This document shows positions 54,001-57,000 of a stretch of DNA of 59,353 bases, one piece after another. Every line of letters begins with the position of its first letter. Position 1 is the first letter of the stretch. Source of the DNA: Candidatus Nanohaloarchaea archaeon (lineage in GTDB: Archaea; Nanohalarchaeota; Nanosalinia; Nanosalinales; Nanosalinaceae); contig JBLGBN010000003.1 of the NCBI GenBank assembly GCA_047617745.1, positions 1 to 59,353 on the forward strand, given 5' to 3'. The position numbers were made by a program.

Positions 54001-57000
54001 TGGAACACTTCATCTTTATCCAGTGTTTCCTCTACTTCGTCTTCCCGGGTTTCCTGTTCTGTCTTGGTTGGATGGAAGGCTGGCTCTACGTCTTCAGTAT
54101 CTATTTCCTCCAGTTTCTGGAAGGTTGAGAGAATGTTTTCAAATTCTCTGGCGAACTGTTCTGCCTCACCTTCTTCCAGATTGATCCTGGCGTTCTCGGC
54201 GATGTCTTTCACTTCTTCAGCTTCGACCATATCAGAAACTTGGATCGGAAATATTTAGTAACTGTTTGAAACAGGCATAAGTTTGCCGCATGAACTTTCC
54301 GTGAACAGTTCTGAACAGAAGCTGTTCGGAAACGATGAACATTGTTAATCAGTGAGTTGTAGCAAAGATTTATAAAGGAGCTAAGTAAATGTTAGGATAA
54401 GCTTGAAACATTCGTCTTTGGGCGGACGAATACGAAGCGACTGATTGACATTTGACTCGTTTGGGCGCGAGTCGACTCGGATTCAAATTGGGCTTTGAAT
54501 CCAAACGTATTGGGCATTCAAGTTGGGCTTGAATTTGGACTAACTTCTATAGGAGAATTAACTATGCCGCTTTAAAAAGGTTAGGCATAGCTGTAACGTG
54601 ATGCTAAAATGGAATCCCTAATAGATAATAACGAGTCCGGAAAAGACGTCGAAAACCTTGACGATGTAAAAGATGCTAGAATCGTAGTTGTAGGAGTCGG
54701 TGGAGCAGGAAACAACCAGGTAACCCGCATACAGAAGAAGGAAGTGCAGGGCGCAGACACCGTAGCAATCAATACTGACAAACAGCACCTCGAAATGGCT
54801 TCAGCAGATCGAAAAATCCTCGTAGGAAAAGACCTGACAAAAGGTCTTGGAGCAGGAGGAAAACCTGAGAAAGGTGCAAGATCAGCTGAAGAGAACCGAG
54901 CCGAACTACGATCAATCTTCAAAGATGCAGACATGGTCTTCCTCACAGCAGGAATGGGAGGAGGAACAGGTACAGGAGCAACCCCTGTCCTTGCAGAGAT
55001 CGCAAAGAAAGAAGACTGCATCGTGATCGGAACAGTAACAATGCCTTTCGAGATTGAAGGAGCAAGAATGAGCAAGGCAGAAGACGGGCTCTACAGACTA
55101 AGACAGCACGTCGACACCGCAATTGTAATTGAAAACGACAAACTACTGGATATCGCAGGCGACATGCCTCTGGACCAGGCCTTCGGAGTAGCAGACGAAC
55201 TGATCACTACCATGATCAAAGGCGTCACAGAAACAATCTCCAAGCCAAGCCTCGTCAACCTTGACTACGCAGACGTCCAGGCAATCATGAACCAGGGAGG
55301 AGTAGCAGTAGTAGGATACGGAGAATCAGACACCAAGAACAAAGGAGAAGAAGCAATTCACGAAGCACTATCCAACCCGCTACTCGATGTCGAGTTCGAA
55401 GGAGCAAACGGAGCACTGCTACACGTAGCAGGAGGAGACGACCTAACACTTAACGAGATCAACGACGTAGGTCAAAAAGTCAAACACCATCTCGACAGCC
55501 ACGCACAGGTAATCTGGGGTGCAAGAGTAAAAGAAGAACTACAAGGAAAACTCCAGGTAATCTCAATAATCACAGGCGTCGAATCACCGTACGTCCTCGG
55601 AGAAGTAGAAGAGGAACAGGAAACAGACGTCTCAGGAGATGTCAACGACCTGGGAATCGAGGTAATCGAATAAAGAGTTTCACCAGAGGCTTCCGCGGTA
55701 ACACGCGAAGCTTCCTTCACTTCATATCATACTTTCCCCCTTACCCCTTAAGACCTCCGCGTCCGGGTTTGATGGGCACCAAGCCTGTCAAACACCGTAC
55801 ACTCCCCTCCCCCCTTATGCGGAGGTCTTAAATTTACCTTTTATCCCTCTCATGTAATCAAAACTGGTTTAAGACTTCTCTGGCAAGAAAACCGTGTGGA
55901 CCCGAGGATAACTATACTTGGAGGTATCTCAGTTATACTTGCATCCCTCCCTGCTTTAGCTATACAGCTAGAAACCCGTTACAGCGGTTTAGTAGCAGGT
56001 TTCTCGATTCTCGCATTCTTCGCTGCAGTAAAATTATTTAACAGGAAGATCCTGGAAGAATCAACCGGAAGAAGGACAAAGGCGTTCCAGGACCTTGTTG
56101 AAACAGTTTCCGTATTTCTGGTAATCGGATCTGCAGGGCTGACCGAGATAATTCCTGGCTGGCTAGCGGTTTTAACAGTCGGTTTACTCGGGGTGACGAA
56201 GGTGTTCCAGTTACAGATGAGCCGTAGATACAGGAAAAACTTCAGGTTTACCGTTGGTGAAGACTACTGGATTATCCTAACCAGCATCATTTTTCTGGGA
56301 TCCTATATCAACAGTTACTTCCTCTTCTATGGTATGGCGGCGCTGAGCTTGATTCTCGTCTACGACCTCAGCTCACTGACCAGAAAGATAAAACGATAAA
56401 GGCTAATTACCGGTATCTGTTCAACTATTTAATTGTTGGTCGCGTCATTTTCCTGTATGAAGGCTCCAATATGTAACGTATGCTTAAAGAGCGAGGACGA
56501 GCTCTGCAGCATGTGCGAAGACAAGTTTGAAAACGGCGAAATCACGGAAACCGACATTGAGGTCTCAAGAATTCTACACAACCTCAGCAAGGAACACGCC
56601 TCACTGAAGGACTCAGAAATAATCAAAACATTCGAAGCAGAAAACGTAGTAGTAATAGCGACCGCAAAAGGCGACGGCGCAAAAGTCGTCGGTAGAAGCG
56701 GAGAAATCGTCAAGAAAGTAGCAGATGAAGTAGGCAAATCAATCAGAGTAGTAGAGAAATCAGAGGATGATCTGGAGACAATTAAAGGGTTGCTTAGTCC
56801 TGCAGAAGTTGAATCCGTCAACACAGTCTTCACGCCGGAAGGGCAGGAGAAAAAGATCGTTGTCAGCGACGAATACGAAGGCAAGATCAACATCTCCGAA
56901 GAAGAGTTCGAAGACATAATTGAGGGAATAACCGGCACCAAGTACCGGCTCTCCTTCGAGTAAAAACCTTTCCCTTCTCCTTCTTATCCCAGGAAAAGAA

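Follow-up and report, generated by a model that had tools for sequence, protein, structure and literature searches.

A structured element downstream of ftsZ2 in this nanohaloarchaeal genome holds a C-rich loop unpaired within a long stem. It is conserved behind this gene, its outer stem covaries, it is specific to one locus, and it occurs in genomes in which no cdrS gene neighbors ftsZ2. The analysis supports a structured RNA whose C-rich loop is under selection, and the element is real, phylum-wide and apparently undescribed. Our preferred reading, held tentatively and with a little less than even confidence, is that the element is a docking site in the 3′ trailer that is read by a protein, probably of the KH type, and that it sets FtsZ2 output together with an array of hairpins in the leader.

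The window, i.e. the whole 59,353-nt stretch that was analyzed, belongs to contig C3 of an 834-kb assembly, and the features of the locus are collected in Table 1. The gene order is ftsZ2, g301, g302 (nusA2) and ABCE1. The family genomes compared have two ftsZ paralogs that are about 50% identical, and because a secE-like gene trails the other paralog in some loci we read the gene studied here as ftsZ2, where both the paralog label and the name secE are our own assumption. The gene g301 is missing in some genera and matches no known family (no match in Pfam or NCBIfam, no usable match in the Atlas). The product of g302 scores 142.7 bits against NF005013, below the cut-off of 175, and keeps its GxxG loop intact; this loop and the protein's four cysteines near the N terminus are present in 45/45 NusA2 sequences. 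The TATA-like box ahead of g301 suggests that g301 and nusA2 have a promoter of their own.

Table 1. Features of the ftsZ2 locus, numbered from the first nucleotide of the window
Feature	Position	Strand	Basis
TATA-like box upstream of the leader, putative promoter	54369..54376	+	No change across 20 aligned loci
5′ array of hairpins, five UUGGGC motifs	54410..54535	+	Four of five motifs in hairpin loops
Two further conserved leader hairpins	54545..54590	+	Covarying pairs
ftsZ, read as ftsZ2	54609..55673	+	Pfam Tubulin and FtsZ_C, TIGR00065
Short hairpin right after the ftsZ2 stop	55686..55714	+	Fold; differs between genera
Second C-rich tract, unstructured	55733..55747	+	Unpaired in fold
Main C-rich-loop hairpin	55748..55831	+	Fold, z −8.37; outer stem covaries in 15 aligned copies
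Unpaired C-rich loop, 19 nt	55798..55816	+	Fold; core at 55804-55814, two C runs parted by U
U/C-rich tract behind the stem	55833..55851	+	Pyrimidine run (≥10) past the last hairpin in 20/45 loci
TATA-like box ahead of g301	55866..55873	+	Loose pattern in 40/45 loci, without a background figure
g301, predicted membrane protein, fast-evolving	55896..56399	+	Without Pfam or NCBIfam match
g302, NusA2-type KH protein	56457..56963	+	PF13184; PDB 9FJL and 9F9U

A preliminary description of this DNA had placed a structured element here, and the fold agrees. On the plus strand, 55745-55835 folds at −42.4 kcal/mol (z −8.37), a value reached by 0/200 shuffles. An outer stem of 15 bp, in which 55748-55762 pairs with 55817-55831, encloses both an inner hairpin (55764-55797) and the C-rich loop. 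A 16-mer of this loop, at 55799-55814 and thus inside the unpaired stretch 55798-55816, has one match in the whole window, against 0.02 expected, and one genome-wide when up to two mismatches are allowed. The second C-rich tract, just ahead of the stem, is possibly what remains of a first hairpin copy that other genera have kept, and similar tracts were read by eye in the single-copy genera g1, g2, g10, g14 and g21.

Among the genomes of the family, the 16-mer is present in 29/50 at up to two mismatches and in 26/50 at up to one. As the reversed 16-mer matched 14/50 genomes at two mismatches, only the count at zero or one mismatch provides a clean contrast. One of the 30 loci with a match is unrelated and one is a duplicate; the other 28 all lie behind ftsZ. 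The loop had been described as invariant, which is too strong: the exact 16-mer occurs in 18 of 67 copies and its ACACT prefix in 26, and the conserved part is the core CCC(C)U(U)CCCC+, i.e. two C runs parted by U or UU. This relaxed core is found, in one or two copies as first described, at 45 of the 46 family ftsZ2 loci, a count that adds the ftsZ loci of 22 genomes without a match at the locus, and the contig of the 46th locus ends inside the motif; in four of the 50 family genomes ftsZ2 was not found with the query used. The apparent absence of the element from several genera therefore disappears. Its distance behind ftsZ agrees with the one first reported, at 34–411 nt downstream of the stop codon. 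Within this genome, the relaxed motif stands behind 3 of 708 long ORFs.

The 67 copies are taken from 68 pattern matches, the one left out lying inside a stem in locus L010. As originally proposed, the C core is unpaired within a stem: it is single-stranded (P ≥0.8) in 64/67 copies and enclosed by at least six confident pairs in all 67. Among 150 C5+ runs sampled from the genome as a control, 58 were unpaired and 32 were both unpaired and enclosed. The core occupies a terminal loop in 37 copies and sits in a bulge or internal loop in the other 30, and stem length and loop type vary while the C-rich loop is kept. Such a loop, fixed and of low complexity on stems that change, and present once or twice, suggests a partner that recognizes C runs.

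Beyond the family genomes, 36 metagenome loci were recovered at ≥75% identity, a set that overlaps those genomes, and all 33 with 150 nt of flanking DNA contain the core. A model built from 15 copies finds matches in 24/70 genomes, 22 of them at ftsZ2 and all within the family. Stems with unpaired C runs also follow ftsZ2 in the other four families, in 11 of the 13 loci with enough DNA, as against 0/10 ftsZ1 loci with an unpaired C run in a stem behind the gene; the trailer element belongs to one ftsZ paralog only, ftsZ2. In more distant ftsZ loci a CACCCC motif follows the gene in 14/41 cases, compared with 3% in shuffles (8 of the 14 come from one clade), but the trailer is weaker there because only 5/41 have an enclosed unpaired C run. 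Viral contigs yielded 13 exact matches to the 16-mer, none of them in a comparable long stem when inspected by eye, and we regard these as chance.

The preliminary description had offered no formal covariation test, and one now backs the stem. For 11 pairs of the outer stem in 15 alignable copies, 89.1% of cells are paired (72.3% when shuffled), two-sided changes are seen at 7 pairs, and covariation scores 0.443, compared with 0.161 in shuffles, with 0/500 shuffles as good and slid controls at or below 0.200; this test is inflated by relatedness and covers 15 of 67 copies, chosen as alignable. A MAFFT alignment of 19 first copies returned no consensus structure because stems of unequal length were misaligned, which is why formal covariation is confined to the 15 copies. 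The stems thus still pair, as had been claimed, but do not differ freely between genera: arms swapped between genera form 11.1 Watson-Crick pairs on average, compared with 21.4 in native combinations, since genera share stem sequence.

It is likely that the element acts as RNA on the strand of the ftsZ2 mRNA, although the strand tests disagree. The broadest wobble count, which is strand-neutral and takes in whole trailers, gives 104 G-T against 55 A-C pairs (17 genera against 2). We favor the ftsZ2 strand because this excess arises even though A and C outnumber G and T on that strand, a composition that favors A-C. Corresponding counts are 25 against 13 in the trailers of other families and 41 against 39 in the leader, while controls gave 3 against 0 for SRP RNA, only 12 against 9 for 16S rRNA and 31 against 65 for coding sequence. 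Further strand tests returned 70 against 48 and, for the trailer, 41 against 21, which favors plus, with 25 against 25 for the leader. By contrast, the outer stem alone in the 15-copy alignment has 4 G-T against 10 A-C pairs, and its consensus energy is better for minus than for plus; the same test gives 26 against 4 for the leader. Whole-window folds are better on the minus strand in 44/68 cases, a figure confounded by the flanks.

That two strand tests lean toward minus, that the minus strand of the element also folds (z −4.33) and that four C runs are present in 19/43 loci would fit an element acting as DNA or from the opposite strand, be it as a cruciform, quadruplex, i-motif or origin-type G string, or as an antisense RNA with G-rich loops like those of the leader. 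We consider this very improbable, given that the broadest wobble test favors plus, that the inner hairpins contain G-U pairs and that 15/43 loci have only two or three C runs. A replication origin marked by an ORB G string is likewise unlikely, with cdc6 more than 300 kb from ftsZ2 in 5/5 complete genomes tested.

The U/C-rich tract behind the stem is likely a 3′ end or termination signal, and at least 10 unbroken pyrimidines follow the last hairpin in 20/45 loci. Since such a tract comes after the last stem and the next gene has a TATA-like box in front of it, the hairpins probably end the ftsZ2 transcript. In the part of a transcriptome study available to us, a cultured nanohaloarchaeon with ftsZ in the same gene order shows 5333 RPKM for ftsZ and 3940 for the next gene (PMC10266531). 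The whole element might be a plain 3′-end structure, in which the stems shield the transcript end and the C runs are a general pyrimidine-rich terminator with no specific partner. Its position between stop codon and U-rich tract would suit such a role, as would the C/U-rich tracts behind other genes and a C-rich hairpin that directly precedes a U run in one distant clade. However, a terminator explains neither a fixed loop in changing stems nor the duplication and the restriction to 3/708 ORF ends, and we judge this account distinctly unlikely.

Comparison with known RNA families left the element without an assignment. As initially noted, Rfam has no match for it: over 53900-57100 of the window, Rfam 15 gave one match, at 15.9 of 50 bits and outside the element, and in nine related loci there was no match on the element. 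A diverged SRP RNA is ruled out, as the SRP RNA was found on contig C7 above the cut-off, and so is a diverged RNase P RNA, for which an RNase P-like match lies on contig C1 (E 3e-10, below the cut-off). H/ACA guide RNAs carry an ACA box after the stem, a K-turn or K-loop, and a pocket complementary to rRNA. An ACA occurs 15–45 nt past the core in 16/67 copies, a K-turn-like order in 1/67, and no rRNA complement exceeds the shuffled range for three loops of two genomes, so that this class is rejected; C/D box guide RNAs are rejected in turn, with a C box (at up to one mismatch) in just 6/67 copies and CUGA in 14/67. The ftsZ-DE RNA motif is a bacterial motif downstream of ftsZ, and so shares with our element a structured position directly behind that gene, whereas the trailer element lacks an Rfam match. 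We found no description of the element in the literature searched, which was mostly open-access and had the supplement of PMC5737381 outside its scope.

Bacterial small RNAs with C-rich loops, of the RNAIII or RsaE type, mask G-rich ribosome-binding sites. Our element has the same unpaired C-rich loop with an anti-Shine-Dalgarno core, CCUCC, and the hairpins could be excised from the 3′ trailer as small RNAs whose loop masks the G-rich sites of other mRNAs. Shine-Dalgarno-like words do precede the starts of 199/727 ORFs, against 91 further upstream, and the AU-rich, TAT(A/G)TT-like flank at the stem base (33/67 copies, 13% in the background) could serve as a cleavage site. On the other hand, no promoter or target of its own was found for the trailer element, and its place behind one gene is fixed, which sets it apart from the RNAIII and RsaE type. 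Start regions of its own genome, the only one searched, hold no standout complementary target, with no cell-division gene in the top 12; the ftsZ2 start region does not covary with the trailer (p ~0.5 for all 67 loci, and 0.04 for one subset among five tests); and rRNA complements of the loop do not exceed chance, at 7–10 nt within the shuffled range for three loops in two genomes, all of these tests being weak for a homopolymer loop, as poly-C can pair with G runs, and liable to miss short seeds. Inspection by eye found the C-rich loop in none of five abundant non-coding RNAs of a cultured family member, in the portion of that dataset at hand (PMC10266531 Table S3). Overall we think it quite unlikely that the hairpins work as small RNAs.

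A second structured region lies in front of ftsZ2. The UUGGGC motifs of its hairpin array lie at 54418, 54461, 54488, 54510 and 54523 and form the only such cluster in the genome. Two hairpins follow, and a TATA-like A run (54571-54578) inside the second of them may also be a second promoter. At least two UUGGGC-type loops are present in 42/44 family loci and 15/17 loci of other families, and in 15/42 distant ftsZ loci (55–61% identity) and 0/11 ftsZ1 loci, with shuffles at 6–15%. For ten of the distant proteins, four of the nine clusters found contain members named Aenigmarchaeota. The loops themselves vary, with GGGC, GGGA, GGCG and GGAC represented. We also observed one match to the second leader hairpin within the coding DNA of a phage-like contig, which we read as chance.

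Leader and trailer are complementary, flank one gene and are each unique in the genome, and they co-occur phylum-wide and in some distant loci, with similar typical counts of 3–7 G motifs and 2–7 C runs (mode 4). It is conceivable that they form an RNA-RNA clamp, in which C loops pair with the 5′ GGG loops through three G-C pairs each, several at once, and so close a loop in the ftsZ2 mRNA or join a separate leader RNA to the trailer. There is, however, no lineage-specific fit between them: native combinations reach −6.08 and cross-group combinations −5.96 kcal/mol, a residual of −0.11 (p ~0.10; 57 loci, loops only), in a test that is weak for a homopolymer. The numbers of G motifs and C runs are uncorrelated across 20 genera (rho 0.32, p 0.16), the changes among leader loops are not mirrored in the trailer, and the CACCCC trailer motif accompanies the leader in only 5 of the 15 distant loci that have it. 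Such pairing is therefore unlikely in our view.

The docking reading raises the question of the partner, for which the neighboring KH gene had been the first candidate. The gene is indeed a constant neighbor within the family, nusA2 being downstream of ftsZ2 in 42/42 testable loci. The argument from adjacency to binding nevertheless fails in other families: nusA2 is on another contig or upstream, and not behind ftsZ2, in 5/5 genomes from families f2, f4 and f5, and aIF5A follows ftsZ2 in 12 of the 13 loci of other families with enough DNA. The C-loop hairpins stay where nusA2 lies elsewhere, so the element travels with ftsZ2 and not with nusA2, and because nusA2 adjoins it in one family only, with aIF5A in that place elsewhere, adjacency does not name the binder. 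Upstream of the nusA2 genes of those families we saw only scattered C runs, read unfolded. At least four further KH-bearing proteins of this genome are candidates: FttA, proteins resembling NusA1 and Dim2/KRR1, and the product of a partial gene, which we take to be PINA. That NusA2 itself is the binder seems doubtful.

By analogy, a poly(C)-binding KH protein is our best guess for the partner. The KH domains of alphaCP are of type I, while those of NusA belong to a different type. According to the part of the literature available, the KH domains of alphaCP1 bind a CCCUCCC target and prefer C tetrads (PMC3367169), both of which the trailer loop resembles. Single-stranded C runs lie behind the coding sequence here, as they do in 3′-UTR elements of the PCBP type. 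The same source, as far as it was accessible, describes alphaCP/PCBP and hnRNP K elements (the alpha-globin alpha-complex, DICE and the androgen receptor CCCUCCC) that share with ours C runs kept single-stranded past the end of the coding sequence, spaced much as in CCCUCCC, and several sites per mRNA (PMC3367169). The element most plausibly works like these eukaryotic poly(C)-protein elements, with the differences that it is archaeal, that its sites sit in long stems, and that binding is putative, no triple type-I KH protein having been identified. A bacterial case offers a further parallel: KhpA and KhpB of Streptococcus pneumoniae are KH proteins that act on ftsA, a cell-division mRNA, in its untranslated part (PMC11261784), but this involves a 5′ UTR and a CA-rich site, and the available part of that account describes no structure of the trailer kind.

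In the model that we propose, the element would act in cis within the 3′ trailer of ftsZ2 mRNA, and we infer its transcription, protein binding and regulatory effect in that context. One or two stable stems would keep pairs of C runs single-stranded and spaced, and an RNA-binding protein with a preference for C tetrads, most likely a KH-domain protein, would dock on these runs. Once bound, the trailer, with the U-rich tract at its end, could influence 3′-end formation, stability or translation of the ftsZ2 mRNA, and it may share a circuit with the 5′ UUGGGC hairpin array. Control of FtsZ2 would then operate at the RNA level, in place of the adjacent transcription factor CdrS of other archaea.

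CdrS is a DNA-binding protein encoded beside ftsZ2, whereas here RNA hairpins take that place and no cdrS is found. Both systems would have the same target, FtsZ2 (PMC7439475, PMC8406309, in the parts available), and cdrS and ftsZ2 are reported, in the accessible text, to occur together in every archaeal clade but DPANN (PMC7439475). With a haloarchaeal CdrS model, which may miss a distant trans-acting CdrS, 0/70 genomes reached the cut-off (best 38.8 of 100 bits), and none of the matches listed for these genomes lies beside ftsZ2. Weak ribbon-helix-helix matches occur in 42/70 genomes; in the genome studied here, a 53-aa ribbon-helix-helix gene on contig C29 reaches 20 of 100 bits with the CdrS model. 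For haloarchaeal ftsZ2, the part of one study available to us reports signs of post-transcriptional control (PMC8303175). A further, speculative idea that we also rate as unlikely is that in Nanohaloarchaeota and, in part, their sister group Aenigmatarchaeota, ftsZ2 lies between an array of G loops in front and one of C loops behind so that several short kissing contacts, or competition for a binder, make up an RNA switch or scaffold that replaces CdrS in timing division of the symbiont.

How division is controlled in DPANN archaea is an open question, the conserved CdrS being reported as missing beside ftsZ2 there in the section of the source available (PMC7439475), and cultured nanohaloarchaea with transcriptomes exist (PMC10266531, seen in part). 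A phylum-wide pair of structured RNA elements around ftsZ2 is a concrete and testable candidate for such control. To our knowledge, conserved protein-docking elements in 3′ UTRs have hardly been described in archaea. If the docking reading is true, a C-specific binder would be an archaeal counterpart of the poly(C)-binding proteins of eukaryotes, and NusA1, NusA2, Dim2 or FttA could thereby gain a defined target RNA.

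A conserved leader lies upstream of ftsZ2 (coordinates in the table). This leader, an array of UUGGGC-loop hairpins joined by two more hairpins, was found throughout the phylum and at many distant ftsZ loci, Aenigmatarchaeota among them, with the loop variants GGGA, GGAC, GGGG and GGCG. The A run with flanking inverted repeat before the start codon likewise recurs at distant loci (listed as L168, L169, L170 and L174), and could serve as an additional promoter, form a hairpin in the RNA, or do both. Short conserved leaders, each with a TATA box, also precede the other ftsZ paralog (L049-L060), where a GGGT or GAGTGG word stands 10-15 nt 5' of the start; inspection by eye revealed no evident pattern of pairing between these leaders and the unpaired C-rich loop of the ftsZ2 trailer.

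Features and loci discussed in this section
Feature	Position	Strand	Remarks
Repeated TGAAC/GTTCA words	window 54290-54345 and homologous places		5' of the leader's TATA box
Conserved UUGGGC-loop hairpin array and two more hairpins	window 54369-54590		5' of ftsZ2
TATA-like A run inside covarying inverted repeat	window 54561-54590		~35-50 nt 5' of ftsZ2 start
17-nt palindromic hairpin	L003, L018, L019, L033, L035, L037, L047		
g301, predicted membrane protein	window 55896-56399		GTG start
RNase P RNA-like match	contig C1 15898-16309, window's genome (L062)		~410 nt
Stand-alone ribbon-helix-helix gene	L234:618-776 (contig C29, window's genome)	(-)	53 aa

Behind the ftsZ2 stop, seven of 46 loci, from four genera, share a 17-nt palindromic hairpin ahead of the first C-loop hairpin; it is not present in the window's genome and is perhaps a small repeated element. 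In the other families of the phylum (L108-L122), aIF5A comes after ftsZ2 at 12/13 loci; one of these families, f4, has long, branching trailers that carry as many as six C-rich sites. At one distant archaeal ftsZ locus (L194), a tandem pair of identical hairpins with C/A-rich loops follows the stop, with a third CACCCC site after it.

The gene directly after the trailer, g301, evolves fast, its identity across genera often being 22-36% where detected, compared with 65-90% for its neighbours. It is absent from some genera, and a search for a protein-family assignment gave no match to any family.

Elsewhere in the window's genome, many tRNAs contain introns, and the RNase P RNA-like match, which reaches just 39 bits where the cut-off is 84, is a putative long or diverged form. 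Matches to rRNA were broken into several model pieces (23S at G046:C1:48-3107, 16S at G020:C1:2-1366), which suggests insertions or an assembly edge in these two genomes.

The ribbon-helix-helix gene only weakly resembles CdrS, the transcription factor encoded beside ftsZ2 in other archaea (20 bits with the haloarchaeal model, cut-off 100). A C-rich pyrimidine tract on its 3' side contains the relaxed motif, two C runs split by U or UU, with no long stem enclosing it. At the ftsZ2 locus itself, at least two TGAAC/GTTCA words occur in 25/32 family loci, a raw count with no background rate, and these words between gatC and ftsZ2 may form a binding site for a DNA-binding regulator.
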